A stretch of 64,000 nucleotides of DNA from Bacteroidota bacterium (GTDB taxonomy: Bacteria; Bacteroidota; Bacteroidia; Bacteroidales; PUMT01): positions 67,026-131,025 of the forward strand of contig JBBIHY010000001.1 of NCBI GenBank assembly GCA_037446695.1, in the 5' to 3' direction. The position numbers and the translations under genes were made by a program. The notes under the pieces were generated by a model. That model ran no database searches and was not told the DNA's origin. It was given only the letters and a program-made list of their open reading frames with translations. How positions within the stretch are numbered: the stretch's first letter is position 1; each line of letters begins with the position of its first letter. Shown here piece after piece: positions 3,001 through 36,963 of this stretch.

Positions 3001-3805
3001 GAATACTCCATCAATGGAGGCATTGATTACTTTGCAAGTGGAAGTTTTTCAGCTCTTGCAGCCGGGGATTACGATATTATTGTACGGGATAATTTCGGGT
3101 GCACCCAGGGAGGTGGAACGGTTACCATTGCCGAGCCTTCAGCCTTACTGGTGGATGTACAGATAACCCACGTGATTATTGGTGGTCCGGCAGATGCAGG
3201 TCAACTGGATTTGATTGCATCAGGAGGTACCTCTCCCTATGAATACTCCATTGACGGAGGATTGAATTTTTCGGGAAGCCAGTTGTTTACCGGCCTGACC
3301 ACTGGAGATTACGATGTTGTGGTTCGTGATGCCAGTGGATGTGAATTTGCTTCAACTGTCACAATCCTTGAATTGCCGCCGTTTGATATTGTTTTAAATG
3401 TAACACATCTCAGATGTTTTCAATCAAATGACGGGTCAATTCTAATTAGTGCAAGCAACGGCATTGAGCCTTTTGAATATTCTATTGACGGCGGATTGAA
3501 TTATTTCACCACGGGAATTTTCACTAATCTTCCCGCAGGTGTGTATCCTGTACGCATCAGGGATGCCGGAGGGTACATATATAGTACCAGTGCTGTACTC
3601 AATGAACCCTCCGATATTATTATTACCGGAACAACAAGCAACGCTACCTGCAACCTGTCAACCAATGACGGAAGTATTGTAATCACTGTCAGTGGTGGTA
3701 CCGGTCCCTATAATTTCCTTTGGTCCGACGGCAGTTCAAACCAGGATATCCTTAATGCATATGGAGGAAATTATACCGTAACGGTAACCGATGATAACGG
3801 TTGCT
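1..3805 (+). repeat. Tandem in-frame coding repeats, period about 240-243 bp
   Basis: The first Cys codon of successive units falls at nt 22, 265, 508, 751, 994 and 1234, giving periods of 243, 243, 243, 243 and 240 bp. Units 1 and 2 share long stretches of nucleotide identity (e.g. GATATTACCTGCAA.GG....A.CAA.GGAACAAT.AC.GTAAC.GC.AC.GGTGGAACAGG). Later units diverge. Confidence 0.8.
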
Positions 3806-4596
3806 TTAAAGAGGCCACTTTCTTCGTGAACTCAACACACCAGGTAAATGTTGATTTGGGTGCTGATTTCAGTGTTTGTCCAAATGAAGAAGTTCAGTTA
3901 AACACTGTTTATTCTCAGTCCGGAACTACGGCAGTTTTCTCATGGTTCAGCAATCCTTCCGAGACAATTGCCCCGGTTTCAAATCCGTTTGTCCGTCCGG
4001 TTTATCCTGCATCCATTTACACAGTTACACTTACCGATGAAAACGGTTGTTTTGCAACTTCAACCCTTGAAATCAGTGTATTTGATGTGCCTGAGATTTA
4101 TGCCGGGGAAGATGTTACACTTATGGCCGGTTCATCTGCCACACTTACAGCATCACCTGATGTTTTCGTGAGCTATAGCTGGACACCTGCAGCGGGCCTG
4201 AATACTACGAGTGGAATTTCGGTGATTGCTACACCTGCAGTTGCTACTACCTATTATGTAACGGGTATTACATCTGACGGTTGCCCTTCCACCGATTCAG
4301 TATTTGTTAAGATAGCCCTCCCCATTAAACCTGCATCCGGGTTAACTCCAAATGGTGATGGGATCAATGATTTCTGGGAAATTGAGAATGCGATAGATTA
4401 TCCCGGCATTCTTGTTGAGGTTTTCAACCGCTATGGACAAAAACTCTTTAGTTCCCGTGGATACAGTGACGATAAGCGTTGGGACGGAAACTACAAAGGC
4501 AAACCTCTGCCGGTCGGAACCTATTATTTTGTGATTAATGTGAATGATTCCTCTGGAACGAAACCTATTACCGGACCAGTAACAATTGTAAGATAA
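1..4596 (+). CDS. SprB-repeat cell-surface adhesin with T9SS type-B C-terminal sorting domain (5' partial)
   Basis: Frame 1 is open from nt 1 (SSKTDITCNGLTNGTITVTATGG...), so the ORF-track start at 334 is internal. There are at least 16 copies of a ~80-aa Cys-bracketed unit (TD[IV][TS]C[FN]G..NG[TS]I......GG..P..Y.......G.Y.V.V.D..GC), as in SprB-type repeats. The C-terminus (...LTPNGDGINDFWEIEN...PLPVGTYYFVINV...) matches the gliding-motility / T9SS type-B C-terminal domain. Confidence 0.85.
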   Translation, partial: SSKTDITCNGLTNGTITVTATGGTGTLTYTLNPGAVSNTTGIFTGLSAGSYTVSVTDAKGCGPVNTALIQIVEPNPIQITGTSKTDITCNGLINGTITVTATGGTGTLTYTLNPGSVSNTTGVFTGLSANTYSVSVTDANSCNPVSSGPIQVIEPPAIQINTITPVNVSCNGGSNGSITVVATGGTSTLTYTLNPGSVSNTTGVFSGLFAGSYTISVTDVNGCGPVSSGPVTITQPPAINITGETKTNITCFGASNGTITITAIGGTAPLSYTLNPGAVNNVSGIFTGLGPGSYTVSVTDANSCGPVVSNSIEITEPAQIQFTGIVKTDVSCFGLTNGTVTASATGGIAPLVYTILPPGTSNASGVFTGLAAGSYTISVDDFNGCGPVISTPVNIMEPVEITATVTVTNATCNGTATGTIVIIASDGVPPYSYSVNGGLNYQAGNSFMALAAGSYSVFVRDAKGCTKNAGTYVITEPAPVTFTFNHTDITCYGQTNGIIEFIASGGTPPYMYSIYGNDPAEYQAGNVFTNLGPDTYELIVRDVNGCVSASVFFTLDDPDQIFVGFSAPAITTCFGAPGNITLTGTGGSGSLDYSISTTQFVPGIWQASGEFTGLQGGVPYYGFVRDMVTGCIAYANDGNSITINQPSEILYSVTSVVHVTGCSYNTNGVIRISLPTGGSPPYTYFRNGVSNGTSRIFTNVPVGTHLIEAVDSKGCRKPTNVIVNGPAPIVYDSFVKTDVTTCFGANTGSIIVSASGGTGVITYSLNGAPPVGSGSFTNLTAGLYNLVVRDSNGCFRDTTVTITQPPMMTISVAKTNVTCFGANDGTITISITGGVLPYQYSITNGASYFSTGEFTNLAPGIYGVVARDANGCIQHGGNITIYEPPQLTITGETTVDPTNCPADPGNGSITITAAGGTTPRRFSIDGGLNYFANGGVFTGLPVGTYQVAVRDARGCITMGSELTLTGLLPVTLDITTSNISCSGEVDGSIIIVASGGSGTIEYSINGGIDYFASGSFSALAAGDYDIIVRDNFGCTQGGGTVTIAEPSALLVDVQITHVIIGGPADAGQLDLIASGGTSPYEYSIDGGLNFSGSQLFTGLTTGDYDVVVRDASGCEFASTVTILELPPFDIVLNVTHLRCFQSNDGSILISASNGIEPFEYSIDGGLNYFTTGIFTNLPAGVYPVRIRDAGGYIYSTSAVLNEPSDIIITGTTSNATCNLSTNDGSIVITVSGGTGPYNFLWSDGSSNQDILNAYGGNYTVTVTDDNGCFKEATFFVNSTHQVNVDLGADFSVCPNEEVQLNTVYSQSGTTAVFSWFSNPSETIAPVSNPFVRPVYPASIYTVTLTDENGCFATSTLEISVFDVPEIYAGEDVTLMAGSSATLTASPDVFVSYSWTPAAGLNTTSGISVIATPAVATTYYVTGITSDGCPSTDSVFVKIALPIKPASGLTPNGDGINDFWEIENAIDYPGILVEVFNRYGQKLFSSRGYSDDKRWDGNYKGKPLPVGTYYFVINVNDSSGTKPITGPVTIVR

Positions 4597-7648: not shown

Positions 7649-8428
7649 ATGGGAACATTTCTTTTTAATGACATTATTTTTGGTCCGGTGCGAAGCCGTA
7701 GACTGGGTGCCTCCCTTGGGGTGAATCTGATTCCTGTGGATTCAAAATGGTGCAGTTTTAATTGCATTTATTGTGAATGCGGCTGGACTAACAGGCGGGA
7801 TTTTGCAGGGGATGGTTTTCCACTTCGCCATGAAGTCAGGGAGGCCCTTCGGGAAAAACTGTGTGAAATGAAGAGTAAAGAGTCTCCTCTGGATGTAATT
7901 ACTTTTGCCGGAAACGGAGAACCCACCCTTCATCCTGACTTCCCGGGTATCATTGATGATACGATAGAATTAAGAAACTTTTTCTGCCCGGAAGTTGAAA
8001 TTGCCGTTCTTTCCAATTCAACCATGCTGCATGATGAAAAGGTAAGAAATGCCCTTGCCTGTATAGAACAGAATATTCTGAAGCTGGATTCGGCCATTGA
8101 AGAAACCTTTCGGCTGCTGAATCAGCCAGCCGGGGAATTCAATTTGGACAGATTGATTGAGGGATTAGAGTTTTTCAGGGGTAAATTTATTTTGCAAACA
8201 ATGTTTGTGAGAGGCACTTTTAAAGGGAAACCTTTTGATAATACTACCGAAAAGGAGCTGGATGCCTGGCAGGACCTTGTAAAACGGCTTCAACCCGGCA
8301 AGGTGATGATTTACACCATTGCCAGAAACACCCCGGCAAATGACATTCAAAAGATTCCCCTGAAGAAATTGAACGAAATTGCTCAAAGGATTGAAAATAT
8401 GGGAATTCCGGTACAGGTTTCTTCCTAA
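7649..8428 (+). CDS. Radical SAM protein
   Basis: The CxxxCxxC cluster motif is present in ...DSKWCSFNCIYCECGW... near the N-terminus. GNGEPTLHP is a typical SAM-binding GGEP-like motif. Confidence 0.85.
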   Translation: MGTFLFNDIIFGPVRSRRLGASLGVNLIPVDSKWCSFNCIYCECGWTNRRDFAGDGFPLRHEVREALREKLCEMKSKESPLDVITFAGNGEPTLHPDFPGIIDDTIELRNFFCPEVEIAVLSNSTMLHDEKVRNALACIEQNILKLDSAIEETFRLLNQPAGEFNLDRLIEGLEFFRGKFILQTMFVRGTFKGKPFDNTTEKELDAWQDLVKRLQPGKVMIYTIARNTPANDIQKIPLKKLNEIAQRIENMGIPVQVSS

Positions 8429-17473: not shown

Positions 17474-17640
17474 TAAATTTCTAGTCGGGTTTTGATTAGT
17501 ATCAAATAATTAATTAAGTTTGCAGCCATATTTTGGTGGATGGATTTGACTGATTGCAACCACAGAAAAAAATGCTAAAGCAGTTCTTTTCTGCCCATAT
17601 TCACCCACACTTTTGAAAGAACTTTAAATTAAATCCAGTT

Positions 17641-18933
17641 ATGGCCTATTTATTTACATCTGAATCCGTTTCCGAGGGGCATCCTGATAAGGTTGCAGAT
17701 CAGATTTCTGACGCTTTGTTGGATGAATTCCTCAGGCAGGACCCTGATTCAAGGGTGGCATGTGAAACAATGGTAACCACCGGATTGATTGTGTGCAGCG
17801 GCGAGGTGAAAACCCGGGGTTATGTGGATATTCAGCGTGTAGCAAGAGATGTTGTGAAAAAGATTGGATATACAAGGGCGGAACTGAAATTTGAATCAGA
17901 ATCCTGTGGGGTAATTTCAGCCATTCACGAGCAGTCGCCTGATATTAGCAAGGGTATCGATAGGGGAAAGGAGGAAGATCAGGGTGCAGGCGACCAGGGA
18001 ATGATGTTCGGATATGCTACAACGGAGATGGAGAACTATATGCCTCTGCCGGTTGAACTGGCACAGGTTCTCCTGCAGGAACTGGCGGCCATAAGACATG
18101 AGGGGAAGGTTATGAAATACCTGCGCCCCGATTCAAAATCCCAGGTAACCGTGGAATATGGAGAGGATCATATTGCAAGGAGAATTGATACGATAGTTAT
18201 TTCAACCCAACACGATGAGTTTGCTTCCGAAAAAGAGATGCTGGAAGTCATTGAGAAAGACATAAGGGAGCATCTGTTATCCCGCGTAAGGAATACTGAC
18301 ACATTGCCTGACGAGATTAAGGGTTTGTTTGACAACGGATTCAGGTTACTTGTAAATCCAACAGGTAAATTTGTGATTGGTGGCCCTCATGGCGATACAG
18401 GACTAACCGGCCGCAAGATTATTGTGGACACCTATGGGGGCAGAGGAGCACATGGTGGTGGAGCATTTTCAGGGAAAGATGCCTCCAAGGTGGATCGTTC
18501 CGCAGCCTATGCAGCGCGACATATAGCCAAAAATATGGTAGCTGCCGGCCTGGCCAGCGAAGTTCTTGTGCAGGTGGCTTATGCCATTGGTGTTGCTCAA
18601 CCGGTTGGATTGTACATTAATACTTTTGGAACAGCCAGAAAGGGGCTGTCAGATAACGAGATTTCAGGTAAAGTAAAGGAAATTTTTGATTTGCGTCCTT
18701 TTGCCATTATAAAAAGATTTGGACTCAGGAATCCAGTATTTCTCGAAACTTCTACATATGGACATTTCGGGAGGGAGCCTTTTGAAAAAGAGGTTGAGGT
18801 TTATTATGAGGATGAATCGGTAACAACCAGAACAATTGACGGGGTGAAGAAATATTATAAGAAAGTTCAGTTTTTTGCCTGGGAAAAACTGGATTTCGTT
18901 GACAGGATAAGAAAAGAATTCAAACTGGATTAG
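17641..18933 (+). CDS. metK: S-adenosylmethionine synthase
   Basis: [54 protein letters not shown] and [18 protein letters not shown] are canonical MetK motifs. Confidence 0.97.
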
Positions 18934-26168: not shown

Positions 26169-26650
26169 TTATAAATGCATTGCTTTTAACATTTGATATT
26201 TTTCTTCAATTGTTCGGTATCGCGTGAGGCTCAAAAGGTTAACTTTTGAGTACTTTACAACTTCTTCTGAAGGTCTAAGCGAACTCTTGACCGATTGCTG
26301 TACTCTGTACCAGGTAAAATAGTTCTGGAGGTATTTTGTGGAAACTCCCCCAAAAGTTGAGTCAATCCCCTTCATCACCCGATTATGCAAAGAGGTTACA
26401 GTTTGTATGTGATAGACACCATTCTTCACATAATGCTAAAGATCTGCACGTAGCAACACCAATGGAAGCTGGTTGTCCTGCGCAAAGACCCCTTATAACT
26501 TACATGCCCTTCAGGGCATAGGATGGAGTCCTTTTCAATTCGGTTCCCTTTGGCGTTTTCGATGTCAACTTTGTTTATGCACCCGAGCGTGGCGACCTGC
26601 ATATCCATTGCCCCCTTTGATGAATCCGGCCTACATGCCCAACTATTCAT
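26169..26650 (-). mobile_element. IS1595/ISXO2-like transposase remnant (C-terminal part only, frameshifted)
   Basis: NGVYHIQTVTSLHNRVMKGIDSTFGGVSTKYLQNYFTWYRV resembles the C-terminal H.N.IE...K....G.....S.K.L..Y..EF.FR block of ISXO2-like transposases as I recall it. The upstream piece (CPEGHVSYKGS...) is in another frame. The N-terminal zinc-ribbon and DDE portion is absent. Confidence 0.5.
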
Positions 26651-27925
26651 TATACCTGGGGTTGCCGGCTCTTGGTGGATTCAATGCAAATCTCAGCAGC
26701 AATTTTATTTCTAATAACGATGTAATTTTTAAGCATCCAACCTATGATTCGCTTATCCTCTTCCTGCATCCCGATGCCGATTTGGATGAGTTCATCGGGA
26801 AACTAAAAGACAGGAACCGTTTAATGCCCGAAGTTTCCGTTAATTCCCTGATGTTTGGATTCAGGACAGGCAAATCTTTCTTTTCTTTTCAGATTGCAGA
26901 AAGAAGCCGCCTTGGGGCCTCCCTGCCAAAGGATATTATTGAACTGGGTTTGAAGGGTAATGAGCAATTTGCCGGAAGAACAGCCGATTTTTCAAAGTTT
27001 GGCATAGAATTTAGTTATTTCAGGAAATATTCTCTGGGTTTTGCCACAAAGGTAAATGACATGATACAGGTGGGAGCAAGGGGGAAGCTATTATTCGGTA
27101 AAGGAAATATTCAGCTTGCCAACCACAATATGAGTATCTATACCGACCCCGATACCTATAATATGCAGTTCAGGGCAAAGTTGGATCTGAATGTTTCTGC
27201 ACCAATAATTTTACAATATGATAATGAAGGAAAACTACGGCCTTGAGTTTGATGAGGATAATTTTGACCCTATGAAATACCTGCTAAGCAATAAGAATAT
27301 GGGTTTTGCCTTCGAGATGGGGATAGTGTTTAAACCTATAAAAAATCTGTCAGTTTCTGTCGCAATTACTGATTTAGGCTGTATCAGATGGAACCGCGAT
27401 GTGAAAAACATTTCCATGGACGGTGAGTTTGAGTTTAACGGATTTGATTTTTCACCCTTCTTTGAATATGGTAATGAAGATGATCCCTTTGATTTGTTGC
27501 TGGATTCTTTAGCGAAGGTTTTTGAGATAAGTGATACACAAAATGAATATACTACGGGACTGGGAACAAAAGTTCAACTGGGTGCCAGTTATCAGCTGAC
27601 CAAGGGAATAAATGCGGGCTTTTTATCAAAGACAGAATTTTACAGAAAAAAATTGATGCAATCCGTTACACTTTCTGCCAATATGGAGGTGGGCCTTGTT
27701 TTATCCACTCATGTAAGTTATTCTATACACCACAACACATATGATAATTTTGGTCTTGGCCTTGGATTCAGGGGAGGCCCCCTTCTTTTGTATCTGTTTT
27801 CTGATAATGTGACCGGCCTCTTTCTCCCCCAACGGGCGCAGACAGCAAATTTGCTTTTTGGATTGAATTTTGTTTTTGGGTACAAAACCGAAAATAAAAA
27901 GGCCGGGAGCCAACCTTTCTTCTAG
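26620..27925 (+). pseudogene. Outer-membrane beta-barrel-like protein gene, 5' truncated and frameshifted
   Basis: Two overlapping ORFs (26473-27246 in frame 1, 27218-27925 in frame 2) read through as one protein (...APIILQYDNEG / ENYGLEFDEDNFDP...). The frame change lies within 27209-27243. No signal peptide is present, because the 5' end abuts the IS remnant. The C-terminus ends ...LLFGLNFVFGYK...QPFF. Confidence 0.6.
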
Positions 27926-28396: not shown

Positions 28397-28506
28397 CATG
28401 ATGAAACACCCATTATAGTGCCCAGGCACAAACACGGATGAACAAACTTTGGGTGTTCCCTGTCTGCCGTCAGGCAGGCATCATACCTTTTAAAACTAAT
28501 TTTAAA
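28397..28506 (+). promoter_or_regulatory. Inverted-repeat leader/operator element, copy A (shared with 39912-40006)
   Basis: ATGAAACACCCAT (28401-28413) and TGGGTGTTCC (28450-28459) are inverted boxes. CACAAACAC lies at 28427-28435. An extra 8-bp hairpin lies at 28461-28480. The segment CATCATACCTTTTAAAACTAATTTTAAA runs into ATGATG at 28507. It aligns block by block with the reverse complement of copy B. Confidence 0.5.
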
Positions 28507-30939
28507 ATGATGAAAAATCTGAATTATAAGTTGTTTGTACCACATCTGGTAGCAATTGTTGCATTTTTGATTATTTCGCTGGTTTATTTCTATCCCCTTG
28601 TTGAGGGAAAAATACTGAAGCAGGGTGACATCATCCAGTTCAGGGGCATGGCCAAGGAAATTGCCGATTTTCGCGAAAAAACCGGGGAAGAGGCCTTGTG
28701 GACGAATTCTATGTTCGGAGGCATGCCAGCCTTTCAGATTTCGGTATATTATTACAACAATTTTGCAAGGTATATTGACACAATTCTTTCATTTAATCTT
28801 CCGGTACCTGCCAAATATCTTTTTCTCAGCCTGGCTGGTTTTTATATTCTTTTGCTGGTCTTCAGGGTGGATCCATGGCTGGCTATTGCCGGTGCCATAG
28901 CCTTTGGATTTTCCACCTATTTTTTCATCATTGAAGCAGCAGGACACAACTCAAAGGCTCATGCAATGGCATTTATGGCCCCTCTTATCGCTGGTATAGT
29001 ATTATCCTACAGGGGAAAATTACTGGCAGGAGCATTGCTTACCGGGGTATTCCTTTCGCTTCAGCTTTATACAAACCACCTGCAGATTACTTATTATACC
29101 CTGATGATTGTTGTTGTGTTTGGTTTGTATGAATTGGTTGCCTATGCAAGAGAAAAGCGAGTTAAAGAGTTTTTCAGAATTACTGCCATTCTTGTGTTGC
29201 CTGTTATTCTGGCAGTTGGCATGAACATTACCAATCTATGGCTTACCTGGGAATACAGCCACTATTCCACCCGGGGAAAATCTGAATTGACCGGTAAGCA
29301 GGAGATTCAAACAACGGGGCTTGACAAGGATTATATTCTGAATGATTACAGCTATGGCATTTCAGAAACAATGAATCTACTGATTCCTGATTTTAAAGGG
29401 AGATCACATAGTTTTTCAAAGGGCAGGCAATCTGAGGTGTACAGGGTTTTGGTTGATAATAAAGTTCCCGGGGCACGTGCCATTGCAGAAGGCCTTCCTA
29501 CTTACTGGGGGCCGCAGCGTTATACTGCAGGCCCCGTTTACATTGGAGCTACGGTAATTTTTCTATTTGTTTTCGGCCTTTTTCTCGTCAAGGGAAGACT
29601 TAAGTGGTGGTTGCTCACAGCGACTATTTTATCTGTCATGCTGGCATGGGGAAATCACCTCTATTGGTTTTCCGAGTTTTTCATTGATTTTGTTCCCGGC
29701 TACAACAAGTTTCGCACTGTTTCGATGATACTTGTAATAGCGCAGTTTACAATACCTTTACTTGGAATGCTTGCAGTCTCAGAATCAGTACAAAAAAAGT
29801 ACGAAAAGAAAGATGTTCTGAGAGCGCTGCAATACAGTATTTTTACACTCGGTGGAGTAGTTTTTCTTCTCTGGCTTATACCAGGGGCCTTTCTGAGCTT
29901 CAGTGGAAGTATTGACAAGGATTTGATTGCAGCAGGATATCCTGATTTTATTATAGATGCCCTCAGGGCTGACCGTCAGGCCATGATGCGCTCCGACACC
30001 TTCAGGTCACTGATTTTTATTCTGCTGACTGCTGCTATACTTCTTGTGTATTTTTATGAAAAGTTGAAATTGCAATTTCTTGTTGTTGGTTTGGCTGTTT
30101 TATTCCTTGCAGATCTTTGGTTGGTTGGAAGAAGATTTTTAAACTCCTCCAATTATGTTTCTAAAAGGGAGAACCAGCTGTTTTTTCAGCCTTCACAGGC
30201 TGATCAGCTTATTTTAAGTGATCCTGATCCGAATTTCAGGGTTCTGAATCTTACCCGCAGTCCATTTAACGATGCTGTAACATCCTACCACCACAAATCG
30301 GTGGGAGGCTATCATGGTGCAAAAATGGGGCGTTACCAGGAAGTGATTGAGAAGTACCTTGGCCGGCATGATATGAATGTTTTAAATATGCTCAACACAA
30401 AATACTTCATACTTCCGTCAGAAAACCAGGGCAATCCTGAGGTTCAGTTTAATGCTAATGCAATGGGGAATGCCTGGTTTGTTGACTCCTACCGGCTTGT
30501 TGAAAATGCCGATGAGGAATTGGAAGCTCTGGGCGCGGTTAATTTCATGGAAGAAATGATAGTTGATCGAAGGTTTAGTGAATTGCTGCCCGAAAATTTT
30601 GCCGGAAGAGATACTTTGGCAATCATTCAACTGGAAAGTTACAGCCCGAATCATCTGGTGTATTCCTATCAGTCAGTTACACCACAGTTGATTGTTTTCT
30701 CAGAAATTTATTACAGTAAGGGATGGGAAGCAAGTATTTCAGGTAAGAAATCGGAGCATTTCAGGGCGAATTATATTTTGAGAGGGATGTTTGTCCCAGA
30801 GGGAGAACATAAAATTGAATTCCGTTTCAGGCCAAGAGGGTATTTTACCGGAGAGAAGATAGCCCTTGCCAGTTCAGTATTATTATTGCTGTTTATTGCA
30901 GGGTTTTTCTTTAGGGAATACAAGGGAGTCATGAAGTAG
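28507..30939 (+). CDS. YfhO-like polytopic membrane protein (putative glycosyltransferase)
   Basis: It is about 810 aa from MMKNLNYKLFVPHLVAIVAFLIISLVYFYP. It has many TM helices in the first two thirds, a soluble C-terminal domain and a final TM helix, which is the YfhO-family architecture. The ORF-track start at 28438 lies inside the conserved upstream element and is probably not used. Confidence 0.7.
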   Translation: MMKNLNYKLFVPHLVAIVAFLIISLVYFYPLVEGKILKQGDIIQFRGMAKEIADFREKTGEEALWTNSMFGGMPAFQISVYYYNNFARYIDTILSFNLPVPAKYLFLSLAGFYILLLVFRVDPWLAIAGAIAFGFSTYFFIIEAAGHNSKAHAMAFMAPLIAGIVLSYRGKLLAGALLTGVFLSLQLYTNHLQITYYTLMIVVVFGLYELVAYAREKRVKEFFRITAILVLPVILAVGMNITNLWLTWEYSHYSTRGKSELTGKQEIQTTGLDKDYILNDYSYGISETMNLLIPDFKGRSHSFSKGRQSEVYRVLVDNKVPGARAIAEGLPTYWGPQRYTAGPVYIGATVIFLFVFGLFLVKGRLKWWLLTATILSVMLAWGNHLYWFSEFFIDFVPGYNKFRTVSMILVIAQFTIPLLGMLAVSESVQKKYEKKDVLRALQYSIFTLGGVVFLLWLIPGAFLSFSGSIDKDLIAAGYPDFIIDALRADRQAMMRSDTFRSLIFILLTAAILLVYFYEKLKLQFLVVGLAVLFLADLWLVGRRFLNSSNYVSKRENQLFFQPSQADQLILSDPDPNFRVLNLTRSPFNDAVTSYHHKSVGGYHGAKMGRYQEVIEKYLGRHDMNVLNMLNTKYFILPSENQGNPEVQFNANAMGNAWFVDSYRLVENADEELEALGAVNFMEEMIVDRRFSELLPENFAGRDTLAIIQLESYSPNHLVYSYQSVTPQLIVFSEIYYSKGWEASISGKKSEHFRANYILRGMFVPEGEHKIEFRFRPRGYFTGEKIALASSVLLLLFIAGFFFREYKGVMK

Positions 30940-31177
30940 GTTAAGGAGGAATAAATTACCGGGTTTTTTACCAATTGTCGGGGAACAGGGTTCTAACAAT
31001 TTGTTTTTGAATTTATTTTTGCTGAGCCTGCATGCCGCAGCAGGGGTTATTGGAGCATCTTTTTAACAGTATAATAGTTACAAACCCCGCCTTTGGCGAG
31101 GTTTGAATGACAAAAAGGATCAGTTGAAATACCTACCCTTGTTTTAGCCATTAAGAAGATAAAACTGCAGTGGATTT

Positions 31178-31798
31178 TCAGCAGCCTCCCTGAACCATTT
31201 GTTTCTTTTCTCTTGGCCTGATAGCAGGCAGAACAGGCTTTATTTTATCTTCTGCTGATGGAACCAACTCAACACCACCCAGTGCCTGACTGGCTCCCAT
31301 GCGAAACTCGTATTTGGCAAACTCCTCATTTGGGCTCAACCTGGAAGGGGGATTAGGATTAACTATTGCTTCCATCCAATAGTTTAAGCCACCCTGCATT
31401 ACATAATTGTTTTTGTATCCAAGTTGCCTGGTAATCATCCAGGCCTGGTTTGCCTTTACGGTTCCATTTGAATAAAATACATTGATTTTAATATCCTGGT
31501 CAAGGTATGGGACCCAGTCATTATTCAGTATATCCTCCAGTGGAATATTCATGGACCCTGGCAGGTTGTATTTTTCATACTCTGCCTGGCTACGTACGTC
31601 AATGAGTTGAAGCACAGGATTTTTTTCAACAATCATCCGGGCGATATCATCGGCCGAAATAAACTGGGTTTCACTTATCACCTCGCTTAGAAGCTGATCG
31701 GCGGTTAACTTATAGGGCTTGGTGGTATTATAGGGAACTGCAGCAATGATCAATCCCAGGGGGATAAGTACAGCGGCAAGTAAAACTCTTGGTTTCAT
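31178..31798 (-). CDS. Membrane-anchored rhodanese-like domain protein without a catalytic-loop Cys, with a C-terminal ...GGC tail
   Basis: It has an N-terminal hydrophobic anchor and a rhodanese fold (LIDVRSQAEYEKYNLPGSMNIP ... VFYSNGTVKANQAW...GY.NNYVMQGGLNYW). The active-site position is Tyr/Ser rather than Cys. The only Cys in the protein is the last residue (...KKQMVQGGC). Confidence 0.8.
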   Translation of the reverse strand: MKPRVLLAAVLIPLGLIIAAVPYNTTKPYKLTADQLLSEVISETQFISADDIARMIVEKNPVLQLIDVRSQAEYEKYNLPGSMNIPLEDILNNDWVPYLDQDIKINVFYSNGTVKANQAWMITRQLGYKNNYVMQGGLNYWMEAIVNPNPPSRLSPNEEFAKYEFRMGASQALGGVELVPSAEDKIKPVLPAIRPREKKQMVQGGC

Positions 31799-31842
31799 AA
31801 TTGTATTTTTTTGTTTTTAAAAATCAAACGAATACATGCCTC

Positions 31843-32433
31843 TTAATATTCTTCCCGCGGAAACTTTTTCTCTGCCCATTCTCCTGCCCAGAACATGGCC
31901 ATAGCGGCAAAAATAATAAGGAGTACCAATATGCCCGGTGCCAATCCAAGCAATTCGCTCATTGTTGGATAACCCATATTGTTTGCTTTATACAGGTTTT
32001 CCCACAAAGGATAACCTTCAGTAAATACGAGTACGCCCAGTAACATTCCCCCGATAAAAACAAAGGCATCAATTTTGCCAATGGCTGCTGCGCAAAAGCT
32101 CGTTCCCGGGCAAAAACCACCCGAAATAAATCCGACACCCATGATAACACCTCCAAGGATGGCAGATGTGAGGAAAGTTGGGTTAATATAGATATATTCA
32201 AGGTTTACCCAGCCAAACAGACTCGAGAAAAGCATTCCCAGCATCGCCACTATGGCTGCCGTGAAAAAAACCTTCAGTACGGTAGTGTCATAACCATAGA
32301 ACATTCCGGCAAGTTTGCGGCTTGATGAAAACCCGCTTTGCTCCAATACAAATCCAAAACCTATTCCAATAATAAATGCAAGGAACAGATTCATATTTTC
32401 TGATATTATTTCGTAAACTACAAGTGGTGCCAT
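31843..32433 (-). CDS. YeeE/YedE-family sulfur-compound transport protein (half-size, subunit B)
   Basis: It has about five TM helices. The GGFCPGTSFCAAAIG motif is typical of YeeE/YedE (sulphur transport, DUF395) repeats. Confidence 0.85.
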   Translation of the reverse strand: MAPLVVYEIISENMNLFLAFIIGIGFGFVLEQSGFSSSRKLAGMFYGYDTTVLKVFFTAAIVAMLGMLFSSLFGWVNLEYIYINPTFLTSAILGGVIMGVGFISGGFCPGTSFCAAAIGKIDAFVFIGGMLLGVLVFTEGYPLWENLYKANNMGYPTMSELLGLAPGILVLLIIFAAMAMFWAGEWAEKKFPREEY

Positions 32434-32445
32434 TGGAACAGGGGT

Positions 32446-32970
32446 TTAAATCCAGTTTTTTCTGAAAAAATATGCCATTATAAAGGCCGTGCCAAAAATA
32501 GCAGCCATGGTAACAAATCCACCCACGGAAAGCACGGCCATGCCACTTAATGCTGAACCACTGGTACAGCCTCTCCCGAGCTGCGATCCAAAGCCAAAAA
32601 GCAATCCGCCTGCCAGGGCAAATATAAGTCTGCGCCTGGAAGAAATCTTTGGGGAATGTTCAACCTTCCACCTGGTTCTGCCTGAGATGATACCCGAGAG
32701 AAATCCTCCGACAATAACACCGAGCACCTGGTAAACAAGCCAGGAGTTCATAGGATGTGTATCAGTGGCATTTTCCTTGTAATATTGGCTGTTCCAGTAA
32801 TGAGTGGGAGCAACCGCTTTAACCGTTGTTACAACGGTGTCTTTGAGTGCCCCGCTGGCTCCCAGGCCCCTCCCTGAAATGAGGTTCGCGGCCAGAAGTA
32901 CCAGGCCAAGCAATACACCCCCAAGATAGGGGTTCATATAATTTCGTGGTTTTCTTCCTTCTGATGACAT
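32446..32970 (-). CDS. YeeE/YedE-family sulfur-compound transport protein (half-size, subunit A)
   Basis: It has four TM helices. The FGFGSQLGRGCTSGSALSG motif is typical of YeeE/YedE repeats. Confidence 0.85.
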   Translation of the reverse strand: MSSEGRKPRNYMNPYLGGVLLGLVLLAANLISGRGLGASGALKDTVVTTVKAVAPTHYWNSQYYKENATDTHPMNSWLVYQVLGVIVGGFLSGIISGRTRWKVEHSPKISSRRRLIFALAGGLLFGFGSQLGRGCTSGSALSGMAVLSVGGFVTMAAIFGTAFIMAYFFRKNWI

Positions 32971-32985
32971 AAAAAAAATTTTTAA

Positions 32986-33927
32986 TTAATATAACCATCT
33001 ACTTTCCTGCCCTGCATAGGCTATTATAAAACGAAGCATCAGGCTTCCAAATAAAACCAGGGATGCTGTAAGGACAACAGGAATTTTATGTTTTCTCAAT
33101 TCAAGGATTTCCAGCACTGCAGGGAATATCATTCCCAAAAATACCACAAAGACCCAGAAGGGCGCGGTATATGGTCCTCCAAGGAAGAGCTTTGCAGCAT
33201 CAATCTGAACCTGTGTGCTCGCAAGAAAACCCATAAACATATGAATAATCAGAAATAGCTCTATACCAATAATAACAAGATCTATTCTGGCAAAAAGTGT
33301 TCTCTCCTGGTGAGATTTTGAAATTAGCATAATTGCAGCAGCACCTGCCGACAAACCGGATGCCAGGAAAAGTGGTCCCAAAATGGAAGTATTCCATAAA
33401 GGCCTTGCGTTAAAAGCAGAAAACAGGATGCCTGTATAAATCCCCAGTATTACTGAGAATACGAGTAATACCCAGGACATTTCAATTTTGTAACGGGTAA
33501 AGAAATTTTCCAGCCATTTCAGCCAATCGTATTTCCAGTCCCATTTTGGCCAAATCTCCCTGATATTGAGTGCACACCAGATAAAAGAGATGGGTGTAAC
33601 AACCATGAGTGTCCAGGCACCCCACGACATGGGAGATTCAAGCCGGATGGTGGTATACAGCTGCCAGAAATAGGGCTTGTTGTTGAGGTCAAGAAATAAC
33701 GCTACAAGTCCTATAACCAGTATGAAAGGGGTGATAAATGGTGCCCATTTAACTGCTGCGGGATATTGTTTTTCTTTTCCCAGGATGGTATACAGGGCAG
33801 CGAAAAACAGAATTCCTGCTGCAAGACCTCCCAGGAATAGGTATAGGGGAATATGCCAGTGCCATATGTGCAGATGGGGATCAATCATTGGATTCATCCT
33901 CCCGCTTATGATTAGTTCTTCTCTCAT
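32986..33927 (-). CDS. Polysulfide reductase NrfD-family membrane anchor (PsrC-like)
   Basis: It has eight predicted TM helices and a conserved N-terminal W..IP.YLFLGGLAAG motif of the NrfD/PsrC family. It lies directly after the 4Fe-4S subunit gene. Confidence 0.85.
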   Translation of the reverse strand: MREELIISGRMNPMIDPHLHIWHWHIPLYLFLGGLAAGILFFAALYTILGKEKQYPAAVKWAPFITPFILVIGLVALFLDLNNKPYFWQLYTTIRLESPMSWGAWTLMVVTPISFIWCALNIREIWPKWDWKYDWLKWLENFFTRYKIEMSWVLLVFSVILGIYTGILFSAFNARPLWNTSILGPLFLASGLSAGAAAIMLISKSHQERTLFARIDLVIIGIELFLIIHMFMGFLASTQVQIDAAKLFLGGPYTAPFWVFVVFLGMIFPAVLEILELRKHKIPVVLTASLVLFGSLMLRFIIAYAGQESRWLY

Positions 33928-33938
33928 TTCATTCAGAA

Positions 33939-34472
33939 TTATATAAGAAAATAGAGATGTGGCTGAGTTCCTGCTTCAGGAATAAGTGTTTTCCATTTGC
34001 GCTTTTTGAGCATGCGGGATACCTCACTATTGGGGTTATCCAGATCGCCAAAGTACATGCACTTTGTGGGACAAACTTCTACACAGGCTGGTTTCATTCC
34101 CTGTATGATGCGGTGCTCACAAAAGGTACATTTGTCAACATATCCATTTGGATGCGGAAACCGCGCATCGTAGGGGCATGATGTTATGCATGCTCCGCAA
34201 CCAATACACTTTTTTGGTTTCACAAGCACTATCCCTCCTGTTGAATAATGGCTTGCACCTGTGGGGCAGCACCTCACGCAGGGAGCATTATTACACTGAT
34301 TGCAACGTTCAGAGCGGATTTCAATTTCAAGTTGCGGATAAGTACCATCCGTAACTTCCACCACCCAGTCGCGGCAATAACCAATAGGGACCTTGTTTTC
34401 AGTCTGGCAGGCGACAACGCAGTCACTGCAGCCCACACATTTTTTCGTATCAACAGCCATTGCGTACCTCAT
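33939..34472 (-). CDS. 4Fe-4S ferredoxin-type electron-transfer subunit (PsrB-like)
   Basis: Four Cys clusters are present: CVGCSDCVVAC, CNQCNNAPCVRCCP, CIGCGACITSCP and CTFC...PACVEVCP. Confidence 0.9.
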   Translation of the reverse strand: MRYAMAVDTKKCVGCSDCVVACQTENKVPIGYCRDWVVEVTDGTYPQLEIEIRSERCNQCNNAPCVRCCPTGASHYSTGGIVLVKPKKCIGCGACITSCPYDARFPHPNGYVDKCTFCEHRIIQGMKPACVEVCPTKCMYFGDLDNPNSEVSRMLKKRKWKTLIPEAGTQPHLYFLI

Positions 34473-36706
34473 ACTTCAACCTCCTTAGCGTTATTTTCAA
34501 ACCTGAAGGTGACAAAATTTCCACGCATTCCGGTTCCTCCCATGATAGGATCATAGTGAACGCGGGTAATCATTTCAGTGTCATTTGCCCCGCGTCCATA
34601 AGCGCGGCTCAGTCTTTTATCGGCATGTCCAAATCCATGTACCATGTAAACCGAATCCCAACGAATCCTTTCGGTAATTCTCACCTTAATAGGGAAGGAA
34701 GTTATAACACCGTCCTGGTTTTCCAGGTAAACATACTGGTCTTGTTTCAGATCCCATATTTTTGCCACTGAGGGATTAACCCACAATGTGTTTTCATCCA
34801 TTAAATCTGTCAGGTTGGGATTATTCGCTGTACGGGAGAACGTATGCATGGGTGCACGGCCGTAATTTAACCGGTAGTAACCTTCGGGTGGCTCTTCGTG
34901 CGCTGTATAAACCGGAATTGGATCAAATCCTGCTTCAGCGAGGGTAGTGGAGTAAAGCTCAATCTTCCCGGTATTGGTATCAAATTCAACATCTTCGCCA
35001 TCAGAGAAATACAAATCATCGTATTCCCTGGGGAATAGTTTTACTCCAATCCTTTTCATTTCTTCCAGGGAAGACCCCATTTGTTTCAACTGCCAGTCCA
35101 GCATCACTTCAATACTTTCCCATGCAAAGAATTCTTCAAGGCCCATTTTTTTTGATAATTCCTTTGCCATCCAGTAGGCTGGTTTGGAATTGTAAAGTGG
35201 CACTGTTGCAGGCATGCGAAGAGCAATGTTTGGCTGCCTGTGAGGGCTGTTTCTGATTAGGTCGTATCTTTCGAGATAGGTACACTCCGGTAAAACCACA
35301 TCGGCCCATCCGGTAATTTCCACCGGCATTGTATCCACAACCACAATGAGATCCAAATTCTGAATTGCTTCCATTGTGTTTTTCTGGTTGGGCAGTGTCA
35401 TGAAAAGATTTGTGCCGTTTACGATCCATGCCTTAAAAATACAATCATTTGCAACTCCGGGGATGGAAGCATCACAGATGCCTGAGGCTAGTGCAAGATC
35501 TGCCAGCGGGTATTTATTGGGGAATGCCGCTTTCCATGTCCTTTTTGGTTTCGGGAAAGGGGGCTGTGGATACCTTGGAATTGTCATCCTGTCGGGCATA
35601 TAAAATCCTCCACGTCTTCCCCAGCTTCCTAGCAGGGCATTAATTATTGCCACCGCCCGCAGCCTTTGCGTGTCATCGCCATACCAGGTAACATGTCTGC
35701 CGGGGTGTACAATAACCGAAGGGGAGGCATTAGCCATCTCCCTAGCAGTTTTCCTGATAACCGATGGCTCAATGGTGGTGATTCCATAAGCCCATTCGGG
35801 TGTCATGTTTTTCACATGCTCTTTTAACTGGTCAAATCCAAATGTGTATTGCTCTACAAATTTTTTATCATACCATTCCTCGTAAATGATAACATGGATC
35901 CATGCCAATAAAAGTGCAAGGTCAGTTGCGGGTTTAATGGGAAGCCAGAATTTTGATTTACTTGCGGCTACAGAAAGCCTGGGGTCAACTGTAATAATAG
36001 CAGTACCCTTGTCGATGGCATCACTCATTTCCTGTACTTGCCCGTTGTGCATATTTTCTCCCAGGTGAGAGCCAATAAGTACAAGGCATTTTGTGTCGCG
36101 TATATCCGTTATTTCGGGGGATTCAAGTCCCTGGCCATATGTGGCAATGAAGGCTGCCTCCCTGGGGCCGCGGCACTGTGCATACGAAGGAGCAGCTATT
36201 GTGGTTGAACCCATTGCCTGCAAAAGAGTGCCAAAATAATCTCCACCAGATCCGTGAGTAAACAGGGCAATACACTCAGGACCGTGCTCTTCTGCAACGG
36301 CTTTCAGCTTTTCGGCAATGTATTCAAATGCCTCATCCCATGTTGCTTCCCTGAATGTCTGATTACCTCTTTCACCAGTACGAATGAGAGGTGTTTTCAG
36401 CCGGTCTTCATCATAGTACATCCCTATACCTCCTGTTCCGCGTGGGCAAAGCCTGCCATTGCAGCAGGGATCATCACTATTACCAATGACTTTCCAGATT
36501 TTACCTTTTTCGTCCTTATAAACCCATCCTGCACATTTCCAGAAACATACTTCACAGTAGGTTGGTGTTCTGGAAAGATCAAGTGACAGGTTGGCGGCAA
36601 AATCTTCGGGCAGCAGATTTTTCAGAGCATTTGTTGTTCCGCCAGCGAGGGCAAAACCTCCTAGTCCCAGGGCTGAGATCTTTATAAAATCCCGTCTTGT
36701 TGCCAT
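34469..36706 (-). CDS. Molybdopterin oxidoreductase catalytic subunit, polysulfide/thiosulfate reductase-like (PsrA/PhsA-like)
   Basis: It has a twin-arginine signal (MATRRDFIKISALGLGG) and an N-terminal 4Fe-4S motif (CEVCFWKCAGW...C..GRLCPRG). The 745-aa length and the Mo-bisPGD family domain order fit. Substrate cannot be assigned from sequence alone. Confidence 0.88.
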   Translation of the reverse strand: MATRRDFIKISALGLGGFALAGGTTNALKNLLPEDFAANLSLDLSRTPTYCEVCFWKCAGWVYKDEKGKIWKVIGNSDDPCCNGRLCPRGTGGIGMYYDEDRLKTPLIRTGERGNQTFREATWDEAFEYIAEKLKAVAEEHGPECIALFTHGSGGDYFGTLLQAMGSTTIAAPSYAQCRGPREAAFIATYGQGLESPEITDIRDTKCLVLIGSHLGENMHNGQVQEMSDAIDKGTAIITVDPRLSVAASKSKFWLPIKPATDLALLLAWIHVIIYEEWYDKKFVEQYTFGFDQLKEHVKNMTPEWAYGITTIEPSVIRKTAREMANASPSVIVHPGRHVTWYGDDTQRLRAVAIINALLGSWGRRGGFYMPDRMTIPRYPQPPFPKPKRTWKAAFPNKYPLADLALASGICDASIPGVANDCIFKAWIVNGTNLFMTLPNQKNTMEAIQNLDLIVVVDTMPVEITGWADVVLPECTYLERYDLIRNSPHRQPNIALRMPATVPLYNSKPAYWMAKELSKKMGLEEFFAWESIEVMLDWQLKQMGSSLEEMKRIGVKLFPREYDDLYFSDGEDVEFDTNTGKIELYSTTLAEAGFDPIPVYTAHEEPPEGYYRLNYGRAPMHTFSRTANNPNLTDLMDENTLWVNPSVAKIWDLKQDQYVYLENQDGVITSFPIKVRITERIRWDSVYMVHGFGHADKRLSRAYGRGANDTEMITRVHYDPIMGGTGMRGNFVTFRFENNAKEVEV

Positions 36707-36963
36707 AAATGTTGCATTGATTTATAAAGAAACCTGATACTTATTTTAAATGTTATTGAATTAACAGTAATATTCACACAATGATAGGAATTTTTTGCAT
36801 CAGATCAAAAAACCACGGGAACCAGGGTTGTTACATAAAGCTCAGATAATCAATTAATAAGAAAACTCGCTTTACAAAGAATAAAAATATATAAATACTA
36901 ACATATTGAGATATAAGGATTAATGTTTTTATTTAGACTGTAAATAAATTAGGATTATCCCTC

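Follow-up and report, generated by a model that had tools for sequence, protein, structure and literature searches.

A start-codon hairpin repeat of Bacteroidota, with two copies in a 64-kb stretch of one genome

We examined two look-alike gene leaders of about 100 bases in a 64,000-nt stretch of a Bacteroidota bacterium genome (GCA_037446695.1, contig JBBIHY010000001.1, positions 67,026 to 131,025; hereafter the window) and found them to be two copies of an apparently undescribed repeat that occurs across Bacteroidota. The repeat sits on gene start codons, folds into conserved hairpins, and is present or absent between close relatives, so that it behaves as an inserted element rather than a gene-specific switch. 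Its architecture is ATGAAA, a conserved stem (P1, AACACCCA/TGGGTGTT) with a variable apex, CAT-NNN, an A/T-rich linker, and then NNN-ATG-AAA, in which the CATNNN/NNNATG helix (P3) contains the start codon of the downstream gene. The preliminary description had reported one element shared by the two leaders, and this observation holds, the two copies being homologous. Its interpretation as a shared cis-regulatory leader or operator, rather than a randomly inserted repeat, is only partly supported.

Copy A (28401-28515, plus strand) and copy B (40003-39903, minus strand) lie where they had been placed and align block by block. The blocks ATGAAACACCCAT and TGGGTGTTCC each occur exactly once in each copy, and the 3' block CATCATNCCTTNTAAAANTAATTTT occurs only at the two copies, with none expected in 100 shuffles. 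The 39-nt block shared by 28479-28517 and 39901-39939 is 85% complementary (33/39) and is the longest inverted repeat in the window, making the earlier hand count of 31 of 37 positions essentially right. The ACACCCA/TGGGTGT stem forms in the minimum-free-energy fold of both copies, with z-scores of -2.9 and -2.1, and the additional 8-bp GC-rich hairpin is confined to copy A, as had been described. A covariance model built from other genomes found exactly these two copies in the window, at 41.1 bits for copy A, weakened by the extra hairpin, and 77.2 bits (E = 4e-12) for copy B. We refined the description in two respects. The element runs from a first ATGAAA (28401-28406; 40003-39998) to the ATGAAA that starts the gene (28510-28515; 39908-39903), and it contains a second helix, not named previously, in which CATCAT (28479-84; 39939-34) pairs with ATGATG (28507-12; 39911-06) and thereby includes the start codon.

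In copy A, the 5' ATGAAA, which we read as the ancestral or duplicated start-codon hexamer, opens only a 6-codon upstream ORF (uORF), MMKHPL*, counted from 28398. The P1 hairpin (28405-28457) is formed by AACACCCA (28405-12) and TGGGTGTT (28450-57), and its apex holds a small hairpin at 28418-28429 and the CACAAACAC and GGATGAAC boxes. The GC-rich hairpin (28461-28480, TGTCTGCC-GTCA-GGCAGGCA) is an optional module inserted exactly at the P1/P3 junction; the same module is found at the same junction in copies from other MAGs (L072, L111, and L137, where L numbers denote loci from our scans), with variants in L069, L141, and L110. P3 of copy A (28479-28512) encloses a 22-nt A/T-rich linker and contains the start codon of the YfhO-like gene (28507-30939, plus strand; Pfam YfhO), whose start is supplied by, or embedded in, the element. 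Orthologues begin MKNLNF, so the true start is 28507 or 28510 and not the in-frame ATG at 28438 that lies inside the element.

In copy B, the P1 hairpin (39941-39999, minus strand) is a 12-bp stem in which AACACCCA(TGTT) at 39999-39988 pairs with (AACA)TGGGTGTT at 39952-39941, with the CACAAACAC and AATGATGAC boxes in the apex. P3 (39906-39939, minus strand) again encloses a 22-nt A/T-rich linker and contains the start codon of a Cys/Met-metabolism PLP enzyme gene (38727-39911, minus strand; 394 aa, methionine gamma-lyase-like, PF01053, E = 1e-150), the first gene of the minus-strand sulfur operon. The orthologues of this protein are 393 aa and lack the extra N-terminal Met.

To ask how widely the element occurs, we scanned one genome per species for the pattern TGAAACACCCA-N25-55-TGGGTGTTYC and recovered at least 99 loci. 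Of 99 loci, 93 were from Bacteroidota (about 50 genomes, among Bacteroidales, Marinilabiliales, Flavobacteriales, Saprospiraceae, and others). The six remaining loci lack the rest of the element, four being from other phyla and two being Bacteroidales loci with no P3. Because the scan required exact P1 arms and was not exhaustive, copy numbers and taxonomic spread are lower bounds and the conservation of P1 is partly by construction. A first scan of viral contigs with a looser pattern returned 62 loci, all but one of which (L030) were noise by the covariance model, a metagenome scan with YfhO returned one distant locus only, and a BLAST search of copy B against plasmid and phage collections gave no match.

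The downstream part of the element was not in the search pattern, yet it is present in nearly all hits, and its NNN/NNN pairs are compensated (CATCAT/ATGATG, CATCTG/CAGATG, CATGTG/CACATG, CATACG/CGTATG, CATCCG/CGGATG, and others). RNAalifold identified three covarying pairs. Among 77 distinct copies, 98.8% of cells are paired and 94 cells carry changes on both sides, a count that none of 500 shuffles reached and that compares with at most 16 such cells in slid registers. The covariation score is 0.217, against 0.048 for shuffles (0 of 500 reached it) and at most 0.035 for slid registers. Two copies in one Chryseobacterium genome have different P3 sequences, each compensated. The P1 stem is conserved family-wide and shows a compensated ACATCCA/TGGATGT variant, a C-G to U-A change found in two copies.

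Orthologous loci in close relatives lack the element and read flank-ATGAAA-gene, with conserved synteny, in three independent cases. For the PLP gene, relatives at 93% amino-acid identity read ...TTTATCA|ATGAAAAAAAAGAACATCCG with no element, and relatives at 87% and 86% have only 28-34 nt of intergenic DNA. For YfhO, a 73% relative has a 13-nt intergenic region and a 49% relative has 38 nt. For a Chryseobacterium trans-AT PKS acyltransferase gene, the site is filled in three species and empty in an 82% relative, which reads ...TATAGCAGAT|ATGAAAGTAGTT. In these pairs the upstream flanks are too diverged to align, and because the border hexamer is always the same, true duplication of ATGAAA cannot be told apart from target preference combined with insertion of an element that carries its own ATGAAA immediately upstream of the start codon. 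Copies within a genome also resemble each other much more than copies between genomes. MAG KM4344-07 carries at least 29 copies, which have a mean identity of 0.88, against 0.52 to copies from other genomes, and the similarity between copies starts at (T)ATGAAAC and stops at ATGAAA.

The 5' ATGAAA looks like a former start codon. The 5' flanks of 103 copies are A-rich at -15 to -5, like native initiation regions. In L123 the stop codon of the upstream gene is the TGA of that ATGAAA, a typical ATGA gene overlap, and in L114 and L149 the upstream ORFs read 37 nt into the element. At the other end, 62% (57 of 92) of the element's 3' ATGs open an ORF of at least 70 codons, against 26% for all ATGAAA hexamers in the same loci, and the N-termini coincide with canonical protein N-termini such as MKGIILAGGSGT and MKVVFMGTPEFA. 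ATGAAA is the commonest start hexamer in the window, at 8 of 43 long ORFs.

The downstream genes share no function. They include TonB receptors, efflux proteins, glycoside hydrolases, PKS acyltransferase, ThiC, Fmt, TrkA, RfbA, and others. The 57 downstream proteins hit 112 different Pfam families, of which the largest group is TonB receptors at 5 of 57, so this is not a metabolite riboswitch. At gathering thresholds, a scan of the whole window against Rfam 15 found only SAM-II at 17530-17588, and permissive scans of both copies (E <= 10) gave only noise from eukaryotic snoRNA and miRNA models far below threshold. The preliminary description was thus right that the element is a real, structured, and unnamed sequence, that it has a fixed orientation relative to the downstream gene, and that it runs into the start codon. 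The step from these points to a leader or operator shared by two genes is not supported, given the unrelated downstream genes, the bursts of near-identical copies within single genomes, the empty orthologous start sites, and the copies in one MAG that lie away from any gene start or antisense to the neighbouring genes. The fixed orientation follows from the asymmetric ATGAAA sequence that flanks nearly all copies. This outcome comes close to the dispersed repeat that had been named beforehand as grounds for refuting the regulatory reading, although the repeat is anything but randomly placed.

We consider the best explanation, with a probability of roughly 0.6, to be that both copies belong to a family of short (about 90-170 nt), non-coding, non-autonomous repeats found across Bacteroidota, which insert at the hexamer ATGAAA (Met-Lys), in this view the commonest gene start in these genomes. 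After insertion, ATGAAA would be present on both sides, as flank-ATGAAA-[CACCCA...apex...TGGGTGTTCC-CATNNN-A/U-rich linker-NNN]-ATGAAA-gene, and the gene would therefore keep an intact start codon, now preceded by the element's own Shine-Dalgarno-free, A/U-rich initiation region, while the old start would open only a short dead-end uORF. One internal strand, TGGGTGTTCC-CAT-NNN, pairs with both ends of the element, with the 5' end AAACACCCA to form P1 and with the 3' end NNNATG to form P3. If the two ends were joined (NNNATGAAACACCCA), they would form one continuous helix with that strand. Our analysis shows family membership, the P1/P3 architecture with covariation, placement at start codons, filled versus empty orthologous sites, and lineage-specific bursts. 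We infer from these data that the copies arose by site-specific insertion, which may or may not still be active; that the conserved hairpins serve propagation, for example by holding the ends together for a putative trans-acting enzyme acting on folded single-stranded or circular DNA; and that translation of the host gene starts at the 3' ATG with the linker as the ribosome landing site. A secondary effect on translation is possible, because the start codon lies inside a conserved helix.

Several results weigh against this explanation. An all-against-all clustering of 615 neighbouring ORFs found no transposase, integrase, or other gene family that recurs next to the copies. Unpaired arms that might have marked an autonomous version were chance 10-mers inside genes, within the 8-kb pieces around copies to which this search was limited. 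The element has no terminal inverted repeats, since its 5' end (AAACACCCA) is complementary to an internal segment and not to the 3' end (...NNNATG), and no active insertion or excision was observed. The near-invariant P1 sequence across a whole phylum, together with the strict covariation of P3, could equally reflect selection for a host function such as translation control. Non-Watson-Crick cells in P3 show no strand bias (four G.U-type and five A.C-type), which neither supports nor excludes an RNA-level structure and did not resolve the strand of the functional fold.

The strongest alternative, which we nevertheless consider unlikely, is that the element is a host cis-regulatory RNA leader. 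It would be a generic translational control module in which P3 sequesters the start codon, the internal CAU can pair with either the upstream or the downstream AUG, and P1 with its conserved apex boxes binds a phylum-wide factor (a protein, an sRNA, or temperature); it would have spread by duplication because it is useful, which is compatible with a mobile origin followed by domestication. In its favor are the strong covariation of the helix that holds the start codon, folds more stable than shuffled sequence, the sense orientation and exact placement at gene starts in most copies, conservation of P1 and the apex boxes (CACA.., RATGA) across classes, and the persistence of some copies at the same gene across species, for example the Chryseobacterium PKS gene. 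By inspection, sense-strand G.U pairs also appear in the small apical hairpin of several copies. However, the downstream genes have no common function, and close relatives express the same genes without the element. Within the near-identical bursts of one genome, about 45% of the copies are not at a gene start and some are antisense to both neighbours. P3 is only 6 bp around an A/U-rich loop, which makes it a weak block, and its mismatches give no G.U-over-A.C signal. No promoter motif lies at a fixed distance upstream. The Bacteroidota motif TAnnTTTG was not found in such a position, and a sigma-70 scan of the copy A region also found nothing; the linker of copy B does contain TAATTTTG just before the ATG, but by inspection this is not conserved in the family.

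It is improbable that the element is a DNA operator, in which the 13-nt arms ATGRAACACCCAT would be a split palindrome bound by a dimeric TF that co-regulates the YfhO gene and the sulfur/PLP operon. The arms are inverted, nearly perfect, and highly conserved, and the two copies in the window flank a sulfur-metabolism cluster. The arm spacing, however, varies from 25 to about 110 nt, which does not fit a fixed protein dimer, the arms carry compensated changes typical of a nucleic-acid helix, the second helix covaries with the start codon, the target genes are unrelated, and orthologous operons lack the site.

Still less likely is that the inverted copies are recombination sites for a programmed inversion of the 11.4-kb segment between them, swapping the upstream regions of the two inward-facing transcription units. 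This idea was prompted by an independent assembly of sample SRR11582151, in which contigs end inside both copies (the inner contig corresponds to window 28475-39928 and the outer contigs end at 28444 and 39934); the copies are also in inverted orientation and bracket the segment. Contig breaks are, however, what a multi-copy repeat produces in a de Bruijn graph, family members are overwhelmingly solitary and not paired, and no recombinase gene was seen nearby. Relatives lacking one or both copies have the same gene order and orientation (MlaEF followed by PLP, and DUF4834 followed by YfhO with rhodanese converging).

Membership in a known RNA family (a riboswitch, a leader-peptide attenuator, the FopS/GibS sRNAs, or a self-cleaving ribozyme) was suggested by the 5' leader position, a uORF beginning MKHP, and the resemblance of GAAAC...GUU to part of a hammerhead core, but is very improbable given the Rfam results, the unrelated downstream genes, uORFs of unconserved length and sequence (stops fall anywhere from 0 to 120 nt before the gene start, and 4 of 78 copies have no stop), the absence of a terminator-like site on the sense strand of the copy A region, the absence by inspection of a CUGANGA strand or third stem in the required position, and the nature of FopS as a single-stranded seed plus a terminator that is already in Rfam.

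A more speculative possibility, which we hold only tentatively, is a new class of start-codon-homing element. The roughly 100-nt non-coding unit would carry an internal strand, UGGGUGUU(C)C-AU-NNN, complementary both to its own two ends and to its target, ATGAAA, and this strand would act as a built-in guide, aligning the two junctions or pairing a folded or circular intermediate with gene start sites. A hypothetical enzyme conserved in Bacteroidota would catalyse site-specific integration and excision. Because the element restores the start codon and brings a replacement initiation region, it could colonise the 5' ends of essential genes almost harmlessly and could rewire translation across a genome. 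If the end-pairing geometry reflects the mechanism, it would lead to a new recombination system.

Bacteroidota includes major gut, soil, and marine lineages, yet we found no match to this conserved, structured sequence in Rfam 15 and no description of it in the literature that we could search by sequence strings and by concept, including MITE censuses, REP/RAYT, Bacteroidota translation, FopS/GibS sRNAs, and dCas12f-sigma guide-RNA targets, the last two being different things. The element has practical consequences for annotation, since an ORF list of the window proposes the false start at 28438 and the PLP protein gains an extra N-terminal Met; for assembly, since independent contigs end in both copies; and for comparative analysis of 5' regions, since two unrelated genes appear co-regulated when they are not. 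It also points to an insertion specificity that, to our knowledge, has not been described for bacterial repeats, in which the target is the Met-Lys start of genes and the insertion regenerates it. In organisms that do not use Shine-Dalgarno pairing, it would provide a natural, portable initiation region whose effect on expression is testable.

Among known systems, MITE-like and other small dispersed bacterial repeats (the Correia/CREE elements of Neisseria, ERIC, RUP, and BOX) are likewise short, non-coding, hairpin-forming, and multi-copy with lineage-specific bursts, sit next to genes where they become part of 5' leaders, show presence/absence between relatives, and have a short repeated sequence at both borders. 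The present element differs in that its inverted repeat joins the 5' end to an internal segment, its border repeat is always ATGAAA and is a start codon, it regenerates that start codon and supplies an initiation region, its core is conserved across a whole phylum rather than a genus, and no cognate IS is known. Integron attC sites, and the related single-strand hairpin substrates (CTX-phi attP with XerCD), are imperfect hairpins of about 60-140 nt with a conserved basal stem, an apex of very variable length, and the same short core sequence at both borders of the integrated unit. On the bottom strand, the basal stem of our element reads ATGGAAC...GTTTCAT, which contains the AAC/GTT triplets of attC, and the single conserved mismatch (A.C on top, G.T on the bottom strand) recalls strand-selective features of attC. 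By inspection, the rest of the RYYYAAC/GTTRRRY cores is not matched, copies are solitary rather than in arrays next to an intI gene, and the "cassette" body is a 20-110 nt A/T-rich linker with no ORF.

REP/BIME elements with RAYT transposases, and IS200/IS605-derived PATEs, are also abundant extragenic hairpins that evolve in concert within a genome and are thought to be mobilised in trans by a single-copy enzyme that recognises the folded strand. REPs, however, are 20-40 nt GC-rich palindromes with a GTAG-type head that usually lie at the 3' ends of genes and often occur in alternating pairs, whereas this element is about 100 nt and AT-rich (25-35% GC), has two helices, and sits on start codons, with no RAYT or TnpA found nearby. 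"Stealth" insertions that preserve the host gene, such as Rickettsia palindromic elements (in-frame in ORFs), IStrons/group I introns, and mitochondrial byp translational-bypass elements and T4 gene 60, similarly lie within a gene's expression signals without destroying the gene; the same short sequence flanks the insert on both sides, like the take-off and landing codons of byp elements, and a stable hairpin begins right after the first copy. Here, no splicing or ribosome hopping needs to be invoked, because the downstream copy is itself a complete start codon with its own A/U-rich upstream region, and no ribozyme core is present. Finally, start-codon- or RBS-sequestering RNA elements (ROSE/fourU thermometers and translational operators) share an initiation codon base-paired in a short conserved helix, and here an alternative partner, the upstream AUG, exists for the same CAU strand. 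Those elements are tied to particular gene classes and are not multi-copy insertions, whereas in the present element no signal or ligand is suggested and the paired region encloses the ribosome landing region rather than covering it.

The copies at both loci are real. Copy A lies on the plus strand directly before the YfhO-like gene, while copy B lies on the minus strand directly before a Cys/Met-metabolism PLP enzyme gene, and the two align block by block, as the preliminary description had claimed. The two arm sequences occur exactly once per copy, and the 3' block matches nowhere else in the window, with none expected by chance. The 39-nt block that runs into both start codons is the longest inverted repeat in the 64 kb (85% complementarity). 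Both copies fold with the ACACCCA/TGGGTGT stem (P1; z-scores of -2.9 and -2.1), but only copy A has an extra GC hairpin (28461-28480). To this we add a second helix that had not been described, in which CATCAT, just after the stem, pairs with the ATGATG that contains the start codon (P3). Mechanical ORF calling extends the YfhO frame to an in-frame ATG inside the element (28438, +), giving 833 aa instead of 810; elements of this family can mislead start-codon annotation.

We next asked whether the two copies belong to a wider family. Rfam had nothing at either copy; in the window it placed a SAM-II long-loop riboswitch (17530-17588, +; 71.5 bits against a gathering score of 44) directly upstream of a SAM synthetase (metK-like) gene (17641-18933, +), an ordinary arrangement that is unrelated to the element. 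A scan of one genome per species for TGAAACACCCA-N25-55-TGGGTGTTYC, which required exact arms, returned at least 99 loci. Of these 99, 93 came from about 50 Bacteroidota genomes, including Bacteroidales, Marinilabiliales, Rikenellaceae, Paludibacteraceae, Prevotellaceae, Flavobacterium, Chryseobacterium, Winogradskyella, Moheibacter, Crocinitomicaceae, and Saprospiraceae. Named carriers include Winogradskyella sp. HB-48, Sinomicrobium oceani, and Moheibacter lacus. The six remaining loci (four from other phyla and two Bacteroidales loci with no P3) lack the rest of the element and are chance matches. A full copy (68 bits) was also found in front of a small membrane-protein gene on a contig classified as viral (IMGVR_UViG_3300006226_001713, 7813-7914, +), which could be a vehicle for spread or could be a misclassified bacterial fragment.

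The part of the element that was not in the search pattern is present in nearly all hits, and reads CAT-NNN, an A/T-rich linker, then NNN-ATG-AAA. The linker is usually 19-27 nt, and about 60-110 nt in some subfamilies. The element therefore begins with ATGAAA and ends with ATGAAA. An optional GC hairpin, the same module as in copy A, sits exactly at the junction of the two helices in copies from several unrelated MAGs. The two window copies themselves look modular when compared with the copies at loci L148, L124, and L068 and with those at loci L067, L074, and L099 and in the Bacteroidales MAG KM4344-07. Copy A has the P1 apex of a "short-apex" subfamily that elsewhere carries CATCCG/CGGATG and a 65-nt linker, but nevertheless shares P3 (CATCAT/ATGATG) and the linker type with copy B, which belongs to a "long-apex" subfamily. 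This suggests exchange of the 5' and 3' halves at the P1/P3 junction.

The structure is supported by covariation. In 26 non-redundant copies, the three variable pairs of CATNNN/NNNATG showed 9, 12, and 9 double changes with 2 broken cells. On 77 distinct copies aligned with a covariance model, 98.8% of cells pair and 94 cells carry changes on both sides; no shuffle of 500 reached the observed covariation, and slid registers collapsed. While the P1 stem was fixed by our search pattern, the model nevertheless found extra copies with a compensated ACATCCA/TGGATGT stem. One Chryseobacterium genome carries two copies with different P3 sequences, each compensated. The P1 apex is variable in length (25 to about 110 nt) and in fold but keeps CACA-type and RATGA boxes. 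In one copy (locus L131, 2027-2188, -) the apex is expanded to about 110 nt by two copies of a GC-rich unit (GAGCTCACCGAAGGTAA), so that it tolerates, or attracts, further insertions. Mismatch types in P3 (4 G.U-type against 5 A.C-type) do not distinguish sense RNA, antisense RNA, or single-stranded DNA as the selected fold. One geometric point follows directly from the sequences: the strand TGGGTGTTCC-CAT-NNN pairs with the element's 5' end (P1) and with its 3' end (P3). The two borders therefore meet at the helix junction, and the joined ends would form one uninterrupted helix with a single conserved A.C mismatch (G.T on the other strand).

The element is not a pathway-specific regulator. 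Fifty-seven downstream proteins fall into 112 Pfam families, and include TonB receptors, efflux proteins, glycoside hydrolases, PKS acyltransferase, ThiC, Fmt, TrkA, RfbA, and HydF. The short ORF opened by the 5' ATG has no conserved length, and no Bacteroidota promoter motif sits at a fixed distance upstream. The proposal of a cis-regulatory leader is only partly supported, and the inference to a leader or operator shared by the two genes is not supported.

Instead, the element behaves as an insertion at start codons, as seen in comparisons of filled and empty orthologous sites. With MlaE-MlaF-PLP-NTPase synteny conserved, relatives at 93% protein identity read ...TTTATCA followed directly by ATGAAAAAAAAGAACATCCG, where the window reads ...TTCTCTA ATGAAA[CACCC...GTTATG ATGAAA]AAAAAGAACATCCG. 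Relatives at 87% and 86% have only 28-34 nt between the genes. For YfhO, with DUF4834-YfhO synteny, a 73% relative has 13 nt between the genes and a 49% relative has 38 nt, while an 82% relative has ATGAAACA-GTATTTCA-ATGATGAAAAAT, which looks like an internally deleted remnant. The intergenic region of this 82% orthologue (loci L174/L175, 1150-1215) contains ATTTCAATAATGAAAC followed by AGTATTTCAATGATGAAAAAT, two similar initiation regions in tandem that may be the scar of an internally deleted or excised element. In a different class, the acyltransferase gene of a Chryseobacterium trans-AT PKS cluster carries the element in three species, whereas in an 82% relative it starts 5 nt after the preceding stop. 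The upstream flanks could not be aligned well enough to prove that ATGAAA is duplicated.

Copy number and placement agree with this behavior. MAG KM4344-07 has at least 29 copies with mean identity 0.88, against 0.52 to copies from other genomes, and similarity begins at (T)ATGAAAC and ends at ATGAAA. The 5' ATGAAA looks like the former start: its upstream flank is A-rich like a native initiation region, in one case the upstream gene's stop is the TGA within it, and in two cases upstream ORFs read 37 nt into the element. Of the element's 3' ATGs, 62% open an ORF of at least 70 codons, against 26% for all ATGAAA hexamers in the same DNA, and these starts coincide with canonical protein N-termini. 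In the burst genome, however, about 45% of copies are instead 46-455 nt from a gene, convergent with a gene, or antisense to both neighbors. ATGAAA is the commonest start hexamer in the window.

Other features of the window were recorded alongside the copies. The segment between them (31178-39911, -) is a sulfur-metabolism cluster read from copy B, and encodes a methionine gamma-lyase-like PLP enzyme, an NTPase, a 398-aa protein with no Pfam match, a Psr/Nrf-like molybdopterin oxidoreductase with a 4Fe-4S subunit and an NrfD subunit, two YeeE/YedE-type sulfur transporters, and a rhodanese. DUF5723 is split into two overlapping ORFs of 257 and 235 aa (26473-27246 and 27218-27925, +) that match the N- and C-terminal halves of the Pfam model, while relatives encode one protein of 470-487 aa; because the split is also present in an independent Logan contig, it is a real frameshift or pseudogene rather than an assembly error. 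At the start of the window (147-4051, +) there is a long array of diverged repeats of about 240-246 nt (8 or more units), apparently tandem protein domains of a large surface-protein gene.

What the sequences establish directly is a conserved two-helix element bounded by ATGAAA, located on start codons, polymorphic between relatives, and amplified in some genomes. From this we infer that it arose by site-specific insertion at ATGAAA. We likewise infer that the host gene is then translated from the 3' ATG, using the element's A/U-rich linker as the ribosome landing region, and that the old ATG would open only a short uORF that terminates inside the element. Such use of the linker fits what is established for Bacteroidota, which initiate on A-rich unstructured leaders without Shine-Dalgarno pairing. 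The phylum-wide conservation of P1 (in part a product of the exact-arm search) and the end-pairing geometry suggest that the hairpins are what a trans-acting enzyme recognizes, perhaps on a folded single strand or a small circle, although we found no such enzyme in the 8-kb pieces around copies that were searched.

The main rival, a generic translational control module that is possibly a domesticated one, is not excluded, since the start codon is in a covarying helix and the same CAU could pair with either AUG. A DNA operator is unlikely given the variable arm spacing and helix-type compensation. An invertible 11.4-kb segment was suggested by an independent assembly of one sequencing run (Logan contigs SRR11582151_142790, _133414, and _88681) that is broken inside both copies: the inner 11,454-bp contig spans exactly from copy A to copy B (28475-39928), and 30 nt (28445-28474) are in neither flanking contig. 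This reading is also unlikely because relatives keep the same orientation and family members are solitary. The breaks are expected for a multi-copy repeat and are most simply explained by further near-identical copies elsewhere in the genome, although strain heterogeneity is not excluded. The FopS/GibS sRNAs and the dCas12f-sigma guide targets of Bacteroidota are different entities.

No description of this element turned up in Rfam or in the literature that could be searched. The precedents we have in mind for recognition of a folded strand are integron attC sites or CTX-phi attP, and that the element represents a new, guide-like site-specific insertion system is a possibility we hold only tentatively. 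Small dispersed repeats as such are already known; this one differs in that its inferred target is a start codon, which it regenerates, that it lacks terminal inverted repeats, that its internal strand pairs with both ends, and that it is conserved across a phylum.
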